NCBI GenBank assembly: GCA_038316995.1
Contig: JBBQAZ010000001.1
Coordinates: 1,281 to 65,280 of the forward strand
Reading direction: 5' to 3'
Length of the DNA stretch: 64,000 nt
Origin: Candidatus Saccharimonadales bacterium
GTDB taxonomy: Bacteria; Patescibacteriota; Saccharimonadia; Saccharimonadales; JAXHNE01
The notes under the pieces are model-generated. The model was given only the letters and a program-made list of their open reading frames with translations, had not been told where the DNA came from and did no database searches. The number at the start of each line of letters is the position of its first letter. The first letter of the stretch is position 1. Shown here piece after piece: positions 44,482 to 50,207 of the stretch. The position numbers and the translations under genes are program-made.

Positions 44482-44508
44482 CTAGCACTCTATTATCGCG
44501 AGTGCTAA
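44482..44508 (-). promoter_or_regulatory. CIRCE operator (HrcA binding site)
   Basis: CTAGCACTC-N9-GAGTGCTAA against the consensus TTAGCACTC-N9-GAGTGCTAA. Confidence 0.9.
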
Positions 44509-44520: not shown

Positions 44521-44606
44521 GTTTTGCTTTTTATCAGATGTAATTAAAGTTATCGAAAGGGTGGAATGGTGAGATTAGGGAGGGGGGTTAGTAGTTAGAA
44601 ATGAGG

Positions 44607-44677
44607 GGGTCTCGGGAGGTGTTCGCCACTTGGGCGACACGCGGCGGCTACTACGCCGGCACACTCTCCCGAGACCC
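44607..44677. repeat. 71-nt GC-rich imperfect palindrome (GGGTCTCGGGAGGTGT ... ACACTCTCCCGAGACCC)
   Basis: The arms are 16-17 nt with one mismatch. The interior holds two smaller GC hairpins. It lies in the 3' region of the 96-aa GC-rich ORF. Confidence 0.7.
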
Positions 44678-44688
44678 TGTCCTCACCT

Positions 44689-44718
44689 GTTACCTGCTTC
44701 CCCCTAGTCGCAGGTAAC
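44689..44718. repeat. hairpin GTTACCTGC-12 nt-GCAGGTAAC
   Basis: Perfect 9-bp stem, 19 nt past the stop of the 96-aa ORF. Confidence 0.6.
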
Positions 44719-44736
44719 GATCATGCAACCTGTTGG

Positions 44737-45027
44737 TCAGGCCGACACACGGAGGCGAACCTCATTGTGGTCGATCATATCGGACAGATCGAGGACGGCG
44801 TCCTGATCAGCAGTTTTAGCACGGCAGTCGTACTTGCACCGACAATCCGATGTGGGCTTAAGTGCCGGAAAATCATCGATTTGATGCGTCAGAGCATCAA
44901 TCTGCTCTTGCAGTTCTGCTTCTCGTCGCCTGCGTTCTGCCAACTTGCGTTGCTTCCTGATTGCTCCGGACATCCCCTTGCGGAATCGCTTGGCACCAAC
45001 AGTCTCTTTTGTACTGACATGTGTCAT
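44737..45027 (-). CDS. GC-rich orphan ORF: basic/coiled-coil N-terminus with a Cys cluster (CRCKYDC)
   Basis: 96 aa with a GGGGAGAA Shine-Dalgarno. Its ATG overlaps the upstream ORF's stop (ATGA). Local GC is 52-65% against a 35-48% background. Confidence 0.5.
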   Translation of the reverse strand: MTHVSTKETVGAKRFRKGMSGAIRKQRKLAERRRREAELQEQIDALTHQIDDFPALKPTSDCRCKYDCRAKTADQDAVLDLSDMIDHNEVRLRVSA

Positions 45028-45326
45028 GATTCTCCCCTAGCAATATATTTCATCGGCGTACCGATATAGCTACCCCCTATGGAAGCAAAAAACGTCCTAA
45101 ACTTACGTTTAAAGGCGCCCATTGCTTCCATAGGATAAACTTCCATAATCTCAACGTACAAGACCTGTTTACTAACAGATCTCAAAAATTGTTTAATGAG
45201 CGTCGGTGCACCAAATACTATAGCGCAGAGCTCTAAATTAAACTTGTAAGCTACTGTACTCTCTCTTTTGTCAAGAATCAAGTCGCTTTGGTTTACAAAA
45301 CCATAAGAATATATTGCAAAATACAC
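45024..45326 (-). CDS. hypothetical protein (low-GC, uncertain)
   Basis: 100-aa ORF translationally coupled (ATGA) to the GC-rich ORF. No motif recognised. Confidence 0.35.
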   Translation of the reverse strand: MYFAIYSYGFVNQSDLILDKRESTVAYKFNLELCAIVFGAPTLIKQFLRSVSKQVLYVEIMEVYPMEAMGAFKRKFRTFFASIGGSYIGTPMKYIARGES

Positions 45327-45350: not shown

Positions 45351-48113
45351 ATGCCACAAAATATCACCCCTGAAGGCACTGTACTACTCCTCCAGGTGCC
45401 GCGAACAAACGAAAAAAAAGAGCTTGCCGCAGAGCAAATGCTTGCTTCCTTGCACGGCTTGCTTTACAGGGGTAAAAACGGATTATTTAGCAAAAGCAAC
45501 CGCGAACACATTAGTTTTGAAATAGCGGTCAAAAACAAACGAATCGGCTTTTATGTATGGGTGCCATCATCACTTAAAAACTTTGTTATTGAACAAATAT
45601 ACGCTCAGTACCCAACCGTGCACATTTCAGAGGTAGAGGATTATGCGGACTTAAGCGTCAACACTTCCCCAACTCGTATGACAGCCGAACTTAAGCTCAC
45701 CTCCCCACAACAGCTCCCAATCAAGACTTTCCCTAGCTTTGAGGTAGATCCACTTGCAGCAATTACCGCTACGTTGGCCCAGTTTACAGAGCACGAAGAA
45801 GCTTGGATTCAGGTAATTGTACGCCCGGCCGGGGACAGTTGGCACAAAGCTAGCGAACGCTACATTGCAACCATGAAAGGTAGTGGCAGTGGCGGACTAA
45901 CAAAGGCTCTTTGGACGCCTCCAGAAGGGTCAACACAGCCAAAACTAGCCGAACACCAGACAGCTCGTATTTCTGCGGCAGAAACAAAAGCCCAAAAACT
46001 TGGTTACGATGTTTGTGTACGCATAGTTTACGCTGGGCAATCGTCCGAGGCCGAGGCAAAAATGCGTCTGCAATCAATCATTGCTAGTTATAAACAGTTT
46101 AATTCAACGTACCTAAACGGCTTTGCCTCGCGCTTCATAGACACGAAACCGGCGCATATTGAGGCTTTTTCAGAAAGAAAACTCACAAACAGCTACGTGT
46201 GTAACATCGAAGAAGTCGCCAGCTTATTCCACCTGCCGCACACCAATGTAGAAACCCCAAACATTCTTTGGGCAAACGCCGCAACAGCCGAACCACCAGC
46301 CAATCTACCGCTGGTTGAAGGCGCAATAAAAGACACAATTAGCCCTATGGCCGTAACTAACTTCCGCGGCCACAACACCCCGTTTGGAATCAACCGCAGC
46401 GACCGTAGCAGACACATGTACATCATCGGTCAAACTGGTGTTGGTAAATCCGCCTTGCTTGAAATCCTGACAATCGCAGACATCCACAGCCCATACGGTT
46501 TTGCCGTAATCGATCCGCACGGTGATTACGCAGTTAATATCCTAAAACGTATTCCACGAGAGCGCGTCAAGGACGTTATTTATTTCAACCCTGCCGATAC
46601 TGACTTCCCGATTGCCTTTAATCCTATGGAAGTTACCGACCCCAAACTAAAAACCCACACCGCATCAGAGCTGATTGGCGTATTAAAGCGCATGTTTGAG
46701 TCATGGGGACCACGTCTTGAATATATTTTGCGCTACAGCTTGCTAGCATTACTTGATTATCCAGACTCAACTATGTTGGACATTACCCGAATTTTGACGG
46801 ATAAAAAGTTCCGCGACGAAGTCCTCACCTATGTTGAAGACCCAGTTGTACGCAACTTCTGGGAAGTTGAATTTGCCAGCTGGAACGCTAAATTCCAGGC
46901 AGAAGCCGTAGCACCGGTACTCAACAAAGTTGGTGCATTTACCGCAAACCCAGTGGTCAGAAACGTTATTGGACAACCAAAAAGTAGCTTTAACATCCGC
47001 AAAATAATGGATGACCGCAAAATTTTGATAGTAAACCTTACTCGTGGATTAATTGGTGAAGACAATGCCAGCCTACTTGGAGCGCTTTTGGTAACCAAAA
47101 TACAGATGGCCGCCATGAGCCGTGCCGACATGGAACTAGAAGAGCGCGTACCGTTTTATCTCTATGTGGACGAATTCCAAAACTTTGCCACCGACAGCTT
47201 TGCAACAATTTTATCCGAAGCACGTAAATATGCACTAAATTTAACAGTTGCCAACCAGTACACCGCCCAGATGAGCCAAGAAGTTAAAGATGCAGTCTTT
47301 GGCAACGTAGGATCAATCGTCACTTTCCGCACCAGCGCCGACGATGCCCGCACAATGACCAAATACTTTGAACCGCATTTTACAGATCATGACATTGTTC
47401 ACATGCATAACCGCGACACGGCTATAAGTATGATTATCGAGGGCGAAAAAGTTCCTGCTTTTTCTGCCGCTACCCTGCCGCTGCCAGAATTTGGAGAAAA
47501 CTTTTCCAAAACAATCATTGATAACACTCGGGAGCAATTTGCAGCCAACCGCTCCGACATTGAAGCCTATATGAACGATCGCTACGGCAAGGAAATAAAA
47601 AAGCTCAGTGGCGATAAAAACTCCTTCCCAAAACTAAAGCTTGAGCCAAAAACAGAAGTTGAGAATAATACTGATAAAAACCCGGTTAAAATCAGTAAAG
47701 AATCTGAAACCACGGCTTCCACTACTCCAGAAAATAAGCATGAAAAAGAGCCTCAAACCACGCCAGCTGCCAATACCGATCCAAAAACTAGTGCAAAAGG
47801 TTTGATTAGGCTTGCAACCAAGACAGATTCAACAGATAAGATAGTGGAATCTCAGCCATCAGCTGAAAGCGCAGAAGAAAAGCCAAAGAAAAAACGCCGC
47901 AGACGACGACGCAAGTCTAAATCAGTGGAAACGCCTCAAGAAGTTTCTAATATATCAGCAGAGAAAAAACCCGAACCAAATAAGCAAAAACCTACCAAGA
48001 AGGCAGAAGCTCAATTAAAAACCCCAATTGCCTTACCAAAACCAAAAACCGACACCATGGTTGTCCCTAAAAACGGCGAACAATCCGACGAAACAATCAT
48101 TGACCTCCGCTAG
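45351..48113 (+). CDS. soluble type IV coupling protein-like (TraD/VirD4/DUF87-type) P-loop ATPase with an N-terminal ~340-aa unknown domain and a Lys/Arg-rich tail
   Basis: Walker A GQTGVGKS, then VIDPHGDY, Walker B FYLYVDEFQNF, and LTVANQYTAQM. The C-terminal ~170 aa are disordered and include KKPKKKRRRRRRKSKS. Confidence 0.8.
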   Translation: MPQNITPEGTVLLLQVPRTNEKKELAAEQMLASLHGLLYRGKNGLFSKSNREHISFEIAVKNKRIGFYVWVPSSLKNFVIEQIYAQYPTVHISEVEDYADLSVNTSPTRMTAELKLTSPQQLPIKTFPSFEVDPLAAITATLAQFTEHEEAWIQVIVRPAGDSWHKASERYIATMKGSGSGGLTKALWTPPEGSTQPKLAEHQTARISAAETKAQKLGYDVCVRIVYAGQSSEAEAKMRLQSIIASYKQFNSTYLNGFASRFIDTKPAHIEAFSERKLTNSYVCNIEEVASLFHLPHTNVETPNILWANAATAEPPANLPLVEGAIKDTISPMAVTNFRGHNTPFGINRSDRSRHMYIIGQTGVGKSALLEILTIADIHSPYGFAVIDPHGDYAVNILKRIPRERVKDVIYFNPADTDFPIAFNPMEVTDPKLKTHTASELIGVLKRMFESWGPRLEYILRYSLLALLDYPDSTMLDITRILTDKKFRDEVLTYVEDPVVRNFWEVEFASWNAKFQAEAVAPVLNKVGAFTANPVVRNVIGQPKSSFNIRKIMDDRKILIVNLTRGLIGEDNASLLGALLVTKIQMAAMSRADMELEERVPFYLYVDEFQNFATDSFATILSEARKYALNLTVANQYTAQMSQEVKDAVFGNVGSIVTFRTSADDARTMTKYFEPHFTDHDIVHMHNRDTAISMIIEGEKVPAFSAATLPLPEFGENFSKTIIDNTREQFAANRSDIEAYMNDRYGKEIKKLSGDKNSFPKLKLEPKTEVENNTDKNPVKISKESETTASTTPENKHEKEPQTTPAANTDPKTSAKGLIRLATKTDSTDKIVESQPSAESAEEKPKKKRRRRRRKSKSVETPQEVSNISAEKKPEPNKQKPTKKAEAQLKTPIALPKPKTDTMVVPKNGEQSDETIIDLR

Positions 48114-48264: not shown

Positions 48265-48861
48265 TTAAGCGGCCTCTGTTGATTCGCCGTTTAGTTGGCG
48301 CCGAAGTTCAAACATTTCAAGCTCTGCTACAAAGTATTCTGGGTTAAAGTCTGCTTCGTGCTGTAGTCCCACAATACCTGTGACTCTGTCGGCAGTAACA
48401 ATAGGATCAACATCATCTGTATACCATCCAAATACATTATTGCTAAGAATGAAATCCCCTATCAGCTCACCCTCTTCATTAAAGTCAGATATGAATACAT
48501 AATTTGAGTCAACGCTCTCAAGATTGTCATCTATAGAGGCGAAACGCAGTTCACGTTTTGCCACAAATGACTGCTCAAGACGTTTTGGAACTAGAATAAC
48601 TCTGTCATGGATAAACTTGTACGCGTCGTTTCCATGTGAACGCATCACAAATTTTCTGGTGCGAGCGTGAATATCTCCTACTCCATTTAGAGCGGCATCA
48701 GAATCAACAGCTTCTTGTAGTTTTTCTAAAGTTGCTTGAAGCGCCACAGATAGGTTAACTGGCTCGCTATCTAATAAACTACGAAAATCTGCTTCATCGG
48801 ATTGATTAAAGCGTTCAAAGTCACCGTTAGATGGATGTGTTTCTCGAGGCATAATGTCCAT
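48265..48861 (-). CDS. hypothetical acidic protein
   Basis: 198 aa, convergent with the ATPase gene. No motif recognised. Confidence 0.55.
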   Translation of the reverse strand: MDIMPRETHPSNGDFERFNQSDEADFRSLLDSEPVNLSVALQATLEKLQEAVDSDAALNGVGDIHARTRKFVMRSHGNDAYKFIHDRVILVPKRLEQSFVAKRELRFASIDDNLESVDSNYVFISDFNEEGELIGDFILSNNVFGWYTDDVDPIVTADRVTGIVGLQHEADFNPEYFVAELEMFELRRQLNGESTEAA

Positions 48862-48967
48862 ATTCTAACATTTTGCACAACACTTAGTCAACTTAAAAAA
48901 CATTTGACACTCTTTGTCAAAAGGAGTATCTTCAAATAGTCCATAATGGCAATCAAAAGGGGTAACG

Positions 48968-49372
48968 GTGGAATCGAGCTCGAAAGAGATCGACACAGAA
49001 ACACTCATTGTTGGGAACAACGGTGAATGCGTGTCCGAGACTGGGCACACGCGCATCAAGATCTGGTGTGAGGCCGAGCCCACGCTTACCTTCACCAACT
49101 TTCTCGGCGCTGTCACTGACGGCATCGAGAATCTGGAGACAGTGCTCAAAAGCAAGCTCCCGGGAGCGCGCTACGAACTGGTCTTCCCTCCACACTTGGA
49201 GGATTTGCACCGCATGCACGGTATCGCCTCGCAGTTCATCCTTGAGGTGAACAGTCGACTTCGTGTCCAGAATGACACGATGTTGAGAAGATTTCTTTAC
49301 CCAGGCGAAGACAGCGGGATGGCCGAACCCTCCGAAGTCGGTGCATATGGCAACTACGACCGCGATCGCTGA
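48968..49372 (+). CDS. GC-rich orphan ORF
   Basis: 134 aa with a GTG start preceded by AAAAGGGG. Third-codon positions are strongly G/C-rich in this frame. Local GC reaches about 63%. Confidence 0.55.
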   Translation: MESSSKEIDTETLIVGNNGECVSETGHTRIKIWCEAEPTLTFTNFLGAVTDGIENLETVLKSKLPGARYELVFPPHLEDLHRMHGIASQFILEVNSRLRVQNDTMLRRFLYPGEDSGMAEPSEVGAYGNYDRDR

Positions 49373-49384
49373 TTAACCAGGACG

Positions 49385-49429
49385 CCCGGACGGGAGATGC
49401 ACAACTACGTTGCAACATCCCCGTCCGGG
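49385..49429 (+). terminator. long GC hairpin after the GC-rich ORF (CCCGGACGGG.GATG / CATCCCCGTCCGGG)
   Basis: 14-bp stem with one bulge and a 16-nt loop. No U-tract. Confidence 0.45.
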
Positions 49430-49526
49430 TTCTGGGCAAGGTTTAGTAACCAACAAGAATGTTGTAGGCACATTTGCCTCCATTACTTAACTAATTACTA
49501 AACCTCGCCCTTCAACCACGTAAACT

Positions 49527-49554
49527 AAAACACCCCATTCCAGGGGTGTTTTTT
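49527..49554. terminator. bidirectional rho-independent terminator
   Basis: AAAACACCCC-attcca-GGGGTGTTTT(TT). Confidence 0.75.
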
Positions 49555-49579
49555 AATGGACTTGAATTGGAGAAAATAT

Positions 49580-49849
49580 TTAGCGTTGGCCACCATCATA
49601 GGGGCCGGAAGGCTCTTCACCATTTTCTTGAGATTTCTCAATCTCTTCTTTAGATGCAAAAGTGCCATCAGGAAGCTCCTGGGTCTCAATTGGTGTCGAG
49701 CCAAGTAATTCTGCACGTTCTGCATCTATTTCTGCTTTCCACTCTTCTACTGTTGTTTGATCTTCTGCCGAAGTAGCAACCGCACCTAGCTCATCAACTA
49801 TCTTTGACGCTTCTGGCTTGTCTTCAATTGTTGGAATTATACTTTCCAT
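49580..49849 (-). CDS. small acidic hypothetical protein
   Basis: I chose the start at MESIIPTIEDK, which follows an AAGGA Shine-Dalgarno. 89 aa. Confidence 0.5.
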   Translation of the reverse strand: MESIIPTIEDKPEASKIVDELGAVATSAEDQTTVEEWKAEIDAERAELLGSTPIETQELPDGTFASKEEIEKSQENGEEPSGPYDGGQR

Positions 49850-49937
49850 TTCTTTATCCTTTTGTTTACTTTTTATTTTATTTATTAAACAATACAATAA
49901 TAGCAAATATTGTACATTTTGTCAATATTGTTTATGT

Positions 49938-50207
49938 TTATTCTTCTGTAAGAAACGCTTCTATATCTGCGTCACTCAGCTCGCGTGTTGCAGCAATGTG
50001 CGCATGAAGTGCGCTGGTGGCCATATCATACCCAATCACTTTGCCTTGCAGATAGTTAACCCGCGGGTCTTCCATAAGCTCATCAACGCCGCGATCAGCT
50101 TTTGCTTGCTCAAGCTGAACTTTTGCTTCGTTTGCCTCACGAGCAAGCTCATTATGAACATGTAGTAGCGCATCGTGTTCGTTTGGTGAGTGGTTTCTAT
50201 CTGTCAT
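49938..50207 (-). CDS. small hypothetical protein
   Basis: 89 aa. TGCTACAAT lies 9 nt upstream of the ATG. Confidence 0.5.
   Translation of the reverse strand: MTDRNHSPNEHDALLHVHNELAREANEAKVQLEQAKADRGVDELMEDPRVNYLQGKVIGYDMATSALHAHIAATRELSDADIEAFLTEE

Follow-up and report, generated by a model that had tools for sequence, protein, structure and literature searches.

Stem-loops at the 3' end of bacterial messages can act as mRNA stabilisers, as in the "positive retroregulator" that follows cry1A of Bacillus thuringiensis and the repetitive extragenic palindromic (REP) hairpins in E. coli operons. Here we analyse a stretch of 64,000 nt from a Candidatus Saccharimonadales bacterium (the window, to which all coordinates refer unless another locus is named), in which an open reading frame (ORF) of 134 amino acids (aa), ORF134 (48968..49372, plus strand), stands between a candidate operator and a candidate structured 3' RNA and lies divergent to a partner gene. 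Our analysis shows that these parts form a self-contained, vertically inherited expression unit, which encodes a fast-evolving, small, cytoplasmic protein of about 120-150 aa. We propose that the unit would be repressor-controlled, with selection acting on its transcript as an RNA, for stability and/or protein binding, and we put the chances of this proposal at about even.

Like the cry1A retroregulator and the REP hairpins, the element at this locus presents a GC-rich stem-loop right after a stop codon, before or in the transcript end, and is tied to a single gene presumed to need a long-lived mRNA. It differs from them in being a two-domain structure of about 150 nt that has unpaired yet invariant nucleotides and an inner hairpin with a bulge, in showing covariation across deep divergence, and in having a terminator of its own behind it; moreover, stabilisation is here only presumed. 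With the candidate RNA motifs of the Weinberg/Breaker type (e.g. PMC2864571), which come from comparing intergenic regions across genomes, and with Rfam families it shares conserved sequence, compensatory changes and a fixed gene association. However, its place is on the 3' side of the gene, not the 5' side, and its distribution is very narrow, with hits in 3 of 185,579 species representatives. The gene resembles acquired genomic islets in its atypical GC content and codon usage and in its sharp composition boundaries, but unlike such islets it is syntenic, vertical and lineage-restricted, and the anomaly is common to all orthologues whatever the GC content of the host. Finally, the upstream region looks like a promoter-overlapping operator, a perfect 6-N5-6 palindrome over the -35 hexamer and spacer, between divergent genes and present once per segment, although, unlike in known regulator/target pairs, neither flanking protein has a recognisable DNA-binding domain, and the operator is here a candidate. 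Our literature searches on Saccharibacteria transcriptomes, codon usage and structured RNAs, and on the palindrome, yielded nothing relevant.

Proteins homologous to the ORF134 product led to nine distinct loci, and a DNA pattern made for the 3' RNA led to another three. Conservation is higher in the intergenic DNA downstream of ORF134 than at the synonymous sites of ORF134 itself, and a covariance model (R2, built on five sequences and rebuilt on nine) matches 49371..49520 (plus strand) with 136 bits and E = 8e-29. The predicted RNA begins with P1 (49377-49435), a long GC-rich hairpin whose core (49385-49429) has arms CCCGGACGGG (49385-49394) and CCCGTCCGGG (49420-49429) that are 100% complementary and which CCAGG/UCUGG lengthens. 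In P2, a long-range helix, GGGC..GGUUUAGUAA pairs with UUACUAAACC..GCCC (49434-49449 with 49495-49510), and P3/P4 (49458-49485) is a bulged inner hairpin with the nearly invariant GUUGYAGGCA...GCCUCC. Behind the RNA comes an intrinsic terminator (49527..49556, plus strand), a stem AAAACACCCC / GGGGTGTTTT followed by a T run, which is usable in both directions; a hairpin with a T run follows the element at every locus in relatives too. A first-pass annotation, made from the letters of the window, had recognised the GC hairpin at 49385-49429, and we find the same hairpin with fully complementary arms. It is neither an isolated stem nor the terminator: it is the first stem of the larger RNA, and the terminator lies at 49527-49556.

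The pairing is supported by compensatory changes. Of the alignment cells 93.6% are paired, and both sides have changed in 18 of 39 pairs, a combination equalled by 0 of 500 shuffles, while slid controls give 35-50%. In P1 the arms CCCGGACGGG/CCCGTCCGGG become CCCGAACGGG/CCCGTTCGGG in L004 and CCCGGGCGGG/CCCGCTCGGG in L001; P2 reads GTCGGGCTTGTATA/TATACAAGCCCGAC in L005 and CTGGACTTGTTCT/AGAACAAGTCCAG in L011; and in P4 AGGC/GCCT is replaced by GAGC/GCTC in L014. The window sequence by itself folds to the same helices plus the terminator (z = -8.55). In 11 loci the model gives a single hit each, on the same strand as the ORF and with its start 0-10 nt from the stop codon; antisense matches score far lower, and the window holds no second copy by this model. 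The model misses L005, where the layout is the same by eye. Against Rfam 15 (4227 families) there is no match over 49371-49520 at E <= 10, with nothing but terminator-like noise further downstream, and no match at E <= 1 for the orthologous elements of five other loci. A pattern of 20-plus bases spanning P1 and P4 hit 111 loci among the 185,579 species representatives, three of them in Saccharibacteria; we discarded the others as chance matches in high-GC genomes. One of eight matches from a metagenome pattern scan was confirmed by the covariance model (a JGI contig), and no viral contig in IMG/VR matched the RNA pattern. On this comparative evidence we regard the element as a candidate new structured RNA, absent from Rfam.

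How is this RNA made? There is no space for a promoter of its own, and the terminator lies downstream, so that the RNA would be part of the ORF134 mRNA. The placement is not that of a riboswitch or attenuator leader: 8 of 12 loci have a convergent gene downstream, which makes the element a feature of the 3' untranslated region (UTR) rather than a leader. In the more distant loci L005, L014, L016 and L132 a co-directional DDAH-like gene (PF19420) follows the terminator; this gene is absent from the window's clade.

One could turn the relation between gene and RNA around, and this is the alternative that we take most seriously, though we think it rather unlikely: the RNA would be the functional core and the ORF its carrier. 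Processing of the 3'UTR would release it as a small RNA that acts in trans, or it would sense a ligand or a protein and so switch the terminator and read-through. Conservation is indeed higher in the RNA than in the protein, as a DNA pattern and the covariance model still detect the RNA where the ORF is 27-32% identical or, in L125, has no detectable homology. Its invariant unpaired nucleotides and bulged hairpin, the terminator behind it in every locus and the co-directional DDAH-like gene in 4 of 12 loci would all fit. However, with a convergent gene next to it in the other 8 loci the element cannot generally be a leader, P1 begins 5 nt after the stop codon and so leaves no room for an own promoter, there is no evident antiterminator alternative, and the GC-rich third positions of the coding region are left unexplained.

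We turn now to the gene. The pattern of substitutions indicates that ORF134, which starts with GTG, is a genuine protein-coding gene under purifying selection, and so bears out the first-pass annotation on this point. Differences in the two closest pairs amount to 0.19-0.25, 0.16-0.18 and 0.46 at codon positions 1, 2 and 3, respectively, showing a third-position excess, and the ratio of nonsynonymous to synonymous divergence (dN/dS) between relatives is 0.11-0.55, where dS exceeds 1 in all pairs except one (0.89) and is therefore at or near saturation. Across the 12 loci the ORF has a high GC content at third codon positions (GC3). The product is small and acidic. An AlphaFold 2 (AF2) model (mean predicted local distance difference test, pLDDT, 81.5) gives it a beta-beta-alpha-beta-beta-alpha-alpha core, behind which the C-terminal tail is disordered; the tail carries a conserved A-x-x-S-x-V-G-x-Y-G motif.

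To have called it an orphan was nearly right, as the homologues are few, 3 close and about 8 remote, and all of them unnamed, yet they exist. Among 5.8 billion protein clusters 3 were found, with 61-74% identity, one of them from a Candidatus Saccharibacteria metagenome-assembled genome, and a profile search against 1.84 billion representatives brought in seven more, small proteins of 121-155 aa. The same profile search returned the repetitive giant proteins P0008, P0009, P0011, P0014 and P0015, which we set aside as spurious matches driven by repeats and composition, and it gave no credible homologue outside Saccharibacteria-type contexts. Homologues were thus found only in Saccharibacteria, and no family or fold can be named: Pfam, PHROGs, NCBIfam and PADLOC contain nothing usable for ORF134, its partner or two small downstream ORFs, sequence-profile searches of the PDB match neither ORF134 nor the partner, and Foldseek with the confident ORF134 model reaches at best E 0.1 (PDB) and 0.02 (BFVD), which is not significant. 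Weak Rpb3/Rpb11-like Foldseek matches do recur, and are a lead only. The ORF of L132 is a member of the family (hhalign probability 95.7%), and the GC3-rich ORF of L125 shows no detectable homology to ORF134 (hhalign probability 0.2%). The genomes GCA_034520885.1 and GCA_029780855.1 are examples of carriers of a member. The protein collection has no entry 90-100% identical to ORF134 and has a 100% identical one for its neighbour (P0016), from which it appears that ORF134 was probably left uncalled in the source annotation.

We also considered an antisense gene over ORF134 and rejected it: the frame is open in the window (135 codons), L001, L005 and L016, and broken in L003, L004, L007 and L009. 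Since the coding region avoids TTA, CTA and TCA, the open antisense frame is a by-product, not a gene. Fully overlapping 48968-49372 as it does, it could mislead gene finders.

What sets ORF134 apart is its composition. The window has a GC content of 42.8% and ORF134 one of 55.3% (0.57, 0.41 and 0.68 by codon position), the third position being GC-rich in the ORF134 frame alone, just as the first-pass annotation had noticed. Among 405-bp windows of the 64 kb the gene stands at z = 3.7, with the maximum of the window at 49036, and its GC3 of 0.681 tops the 70 non-overlapping ORFs (mean 0.374, standard deviation 0.068). The composition is thus atypical for the host genome, both in GC (0.553 vs 0.427) and as a GC3 outlier. 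In 60-nt bins GC is 0.35 over 48901-48960, 0.63 over 49021-49080, 0.63 over 49381-49440 and 0.33 over 49441-49500, so that a jump at the start codon and a drop after 49440, both noted before, are indeed there; the low GC of the first bin holds as well, its value being 0.35 rather than the 33% given earlier. The GC-rich tract is contiguous over about 470 bp and its edges are sharp, one at the start codon and the other past P1. The promoter, the 5'UTR and the unpaired loops of the 3'UTR show no GC enrichment, GC at first and second codon positions is ordinary, and the 60 nt upstream of the ORF have a GC content of 0.33-0.50 in all loci. Because the enrichment is limited to synonymous sites and helix arms, while promoter, 5'UTR and unpaired loops are AT-rich, we infer that the GC richness would come from selection on the RNA and not from foreign origin.

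Codon choice follows the same line. The favoured codons are ATC, TTC, AAC, CTC, GTC, AAG and GAG, with 42-47% C at third positions. Ribosomal protein S20, GroEL and GroES, whose genes are presumably highly expressed, together use ATT over ATC 38 to 5 and prefer GAA, AAA and GTA/GTT, with 19% C at third positions. In this codon comparison, of a kind that the first-pass annotation had proposed, ORF134 is indeed deviant, yet the trait is family-wide and not foreign. Selection acting on the RNA is further indicated by three observations of lesser weight. First, 12 of 12 coding regions fold better than their synonymous-codon shuffles (mean z -1.53, window -3.1), with partner genes at -0.06. Second, the excess of synonymous-codon identity is +0.09 to +0.16 for the ORF and -0.03 to +0.06 for the partner; housekeeping neighbours (MurE, GroEL, ValRS, ATPase) show +0.03 to +0.08, about half the excess of the ORF. 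Third, GC3 is relaxed in codons 2-13 (0.56 vs 0.77), in line with an initiation region that stays open.

Could the C-ending codons instead serve translation? The protein would then rank among the cell's most abundant, its codons chosen for both speed and accuracy on the cell's own tRNAs, and the 3' structure would be a generic stabiliser. The share of NNC in two-fold pyrimidine codons is strongly raised in ORF134 (0.75, with S20 next among recognised genes at 0.63 and a typical value of about 0.36), and the gene has a consensus -35 hexamer, an UP-like A-tract and a good Shine-Dalgarno site, all of which would suit a highly expressed gene. But S20, GroEL and GroES prefer the opposite codons, also in the four-fold families and for Lys and Glu, so that translational selection across the genome looks weak and differently directed. 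We consider this explanation improbable, though not negligible.

The first-pass annotation had taken the GC-rich coding sequence to have evolved in a higher-GC genome, and in this form the claim fails. A cassette recently acquired from a higher-GC donor, its composition yet to drift to that of the host, would account for the atypical GC and GC3 with their sharp boundaries, for a C-ending codon usage like that of high-GC bacteria, and for the missing 90-100% identical database entry when a neighbour on the same contig has one. However, the gene is not patchily distributed: it sits at the syntenic site in 12 Saccharibacteria loci, usually between groES-groEL and murE-tsaD-valS as in the window. 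Nor is its divergence decoupled from that of its neighbours, since identity to the window falls along with MurE (74, 68, 30, 32 and 27% for the ORF and 77, 77, 54, 36 and 34% for MurE, respectively) and also tracks GroEL and TsaD. The homologues are confined to the same lineage, syntenic and equally GC-rich (52-63%), and homologues restricted in this way are what the first-pass annotation itself had named as refuting its reading. In all 12 loci the ORF has a GC3 of 0.60-0.90, with a partner GC3 of 0.30-0.57 and a locus GC of 43-54%; even in L016, where ordinary genes have a GC3 of about 0.65, the ORF reaches 0.84 and the partner 0.43. With dS saturated, a passively retained donor composition would have decayed, which makes high GC3 a maintained family trait, found in all lineages whatever the GC of the host. 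We found no homologue outside Saccharibacteria among the 1.84 billion representatives, no relatives in phage, plasmid or IMG/VR collections, and no flanking direct repeats, mobility genes or nearby tRNA. Recent acquisition is thus very improbable, and the comparison of loci indicates instead an old, vertically inherited gene pair confined to one Saccharibacteria clade.

A local neutral process, that is, regional mutation bias or GC-biased gene conversion, would suit a contiguous GC-rich tract of about 470 bp, but we find it just as hard to credit: the effect is specific to codon position (GC 0.41 at second and 0.68 at third positions), spares promoter, 5'UTR and unpaired loops, and recurs at the orthologue in genomes of 43-54% GC, while the GC3 of the abutting partner stays at 0.30-0.57. 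Least credible of all is the idea that the transcript or gene is made for decoding in the host cell, an exported "effector message" with the 3' RNA as a stability or export handle. In its favour, known Saccharibacteria live on high-GC Actinobacteria, and the codon set of ORF134, foreign to Saccharibacteria preference and kept throughout the family, matches the dialect of such hosts; a VirD4/TrwB-like coupling ATPase adjoins the gene in the window and in L001 but not at the other loci, and no result here speaks for a transfer of the transcript to a host.

We return to the proposal of a repressor-controlled unit under RNA-level selection, for which the upstream region supplies the second element. 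The palindrome TTGACA-N5-TGTCAA (17 bp, 48904..48920, plus strand; central 5 nt ctctt in the window) consists of a consensus -35 hexamer and its inverted copy in the spacer. Of the 11 distinct loci that include this stretch, 9 carry it exactly, the N5 and the flanks being variable, and it occurs once per locus; in the 64-kb window there is no second copy even with 1 mismatch. Dyad symmetry is thus conserved at a fixed promoter position, and the suggestion in the first-pass annotation that it might be an operator gains support from a site that is conserved, gene-specific and overlaps the consensus -35. A predicted -10 hexamer, TATCTT (48927..48932, plus strand), follows 17 nt after the -35 and reads TAATAT, TATTTT or TACGCT in relatives; in a consensus scan the promoter (TTGACA, 17 nt, TATCTT) scores 10 agreements out of 12. 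An A-rich stretch like an UP element (48893-48902) immediately precedes the -35 hexamer. At the presumed transcript start is a 5'UTR box GTCCATAATGGCAAT (48939..48953, plus strand), which in relatives is conserved as GTCCATATTGGCAAC, GTCC..GGAC and similar. A Shine-Dalgarno-like AAGGGG (48957..48962, plus strand) precedes the GTG, with GGAG or GGGG equally spaced in all relatives, and the start codon is conserved as GTG or ATG; the ribosome site had been recognised before, although the distance from AAAAGGGG to the GTG is 5 nt and not the 6 then given. Two further repeats were considered and dropped: the 10-nt TTAAAAAACA / TGTTTTTTAA, tried as terminal inverted repeats, are the promoter A-tract and the terminator T-run, and the direct repeat TCAAAAGGAGTA / TCAAAAGGGGTA is not conserved in relatives.

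How could these parts work together? Transcription would begin at a sigma-70 promoter close to consensus, with one half of the 17-bp palindrome as its -35 hexamer. We read the palindrome, whose conservation is observed, as the putative operator of a dimeric repressor, which would control the unit; the obvious candidates for this repressor are the partner protein or the ORF134 product itself. The transcript would then comprise the coding region with G or C (mostly C) at third positions, the two-domain RNA of about 150 nt from the stop codon on, and the intrinsic terminator. Such an mRNA would be unusually stable and/or bound by protein: its GC-rich body and 3' helices would resist endo- and exonucleases, and the bulged hairpin GUUGYAGGCA...GCCUCC would bind a protein specifically and thereby decide what becomes of the message.

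Several results weigh against this proposal. L125 keeps the RNA, the terminator and a partner-like gene next to an ORF not detectably homologous to ORF134, and because the RNA persists there, it does not strictly need the ORF134 protein. Searches in Pfam, NCBIfam, PDB profiles and Foldseek gave no DNA- or RNA-binding fold in the ORF134 product or the partner. The structure signal in the coding region is modest, as unrelated small genes of the window reach z -2.3 to -2.7, and the excess of synonymous identity is based on 74-97 codons per pair. The 5'UTR box forms no stable hairpin in the window (predicted -0.9 kcal/mol). Covariation, finally, was counted on an alignment fitted to the model, though compensatory changes are still visible in the raw sequences.

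The partner gene (48265..48852, minus strand) encodes 195 aa from a conserved ATG at 48852 and is divergent to ORF134. A homologue of about 180-204 aa stands head-to-head with the ORF in 10 loci, and all loci that reach upstream of the ORF have a gene of this size in that place. The start is confirmed by the 100% identical 195-aa database entry P0016, and the upstream ATG (48861) chosen by the ORF finder is not conserved in relatives. The protein has no match in Pfam, NCBIfam, PADLOC or the PDB, and an AF2 model from a 2-sequence alignment is unusable (pLDDT 36). A consensus scan predicts its promoter at 48862..48891 (minus strand), with TTGACT, 18 nt and TAGAAT (48867-48862) with a TG; an AGTCAA box stands out as conserved when upstream regions are aligned. 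With the ATG at 48852 lying only about 10 nt past a good -10 hexamer, the partner mRNA may be leaderless or nearly so. In the spacer past the stop codon of the partner gene in L007 there is a match to the type III hammerhead ribozyme (L007 1856-1914, plus strand; 36.6 bits, below the gathering threshold of 48.5; E 1e-4), with no counterpart reported in the window.

Some observations on the neighbourhood stand apart from the unit itself. Upstream of the groES-groEL operon (minus strand) a CIRCE-type inverted repeat, cTAGCACTC-N9-GAGTGCTAA, occupies 44483-44508 and matches the HrcA operator consensus. Between groES and the ATPase gene lies a basic 96-aa ORF (44737-45027, minus strand; GC 0.51-0.53, GC3 0.54-0.58) in a GC-rich region (44560-45030) that is probably the first GC-rich cassette of the first-pass annotation. 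A long GC-rich structured 3' region follows this ORF (44560-44740, minus strand; z = -4.26), a layout of GC-rich ORF plus structured tail that parallels the ORF134 unit. L001 has a 276-bp spacer only at this place, NCBIfam, PADLOC and phage searches give no match for the 96-aa ORF unit, and the RNA model R2 is silent on it. The ATPase itself (45351-48113) has 920 aa and matches HerA/DUF87 domains as well as those of TrwB/VirD4-type coupling proteins; its L001 orthologue matches DUF8128. At its C-terminus is a long tail rich in Lys, Pro and Glu. Beyond the unit, 49840-49960 has a GC content of 21% and contains a near-consensus predicted minus-strand promoter (TTGACA, 17 nt, TATTAT; 49925-49897). 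Since this promoter falls inside the 5' part of a listed 108-aa ORF (49580-49906), the true start of that ORF is probably further downstream. Cumulative GC skew has its minimum near 52-53 kb, and between about 45000 and 53000 genes run mostly on the minus strand to the left and mostly on the plus strand to the right, by which a replication origin could be nearby.

Saccharibacteria are ultra-small, mostly uncultivated epibionts whose lineage-specific gene content is little understood. Against this background we regard the candidate structured RNA, together with the putatively operator-controlled, compositionally deviant Saccharibacteria gene that it follows, as a small but real discovery: the locus offers a gene-specific palindromic candidate operator and a well-supported new structured RNA, of which few have been described in the phylum. 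It is also a rare case of one gene whose codon composition has stayed far from that of its genome over a deep divergence. Screens that recognise transfer by composition would get such a gene wrong, and it may be overlooked by gene finders. If it is true that the GC3 bias and the 3' element control the life-time of the mRNA, this would show in what way a slow-growing organism with a reduced genome invests in a single transcript.

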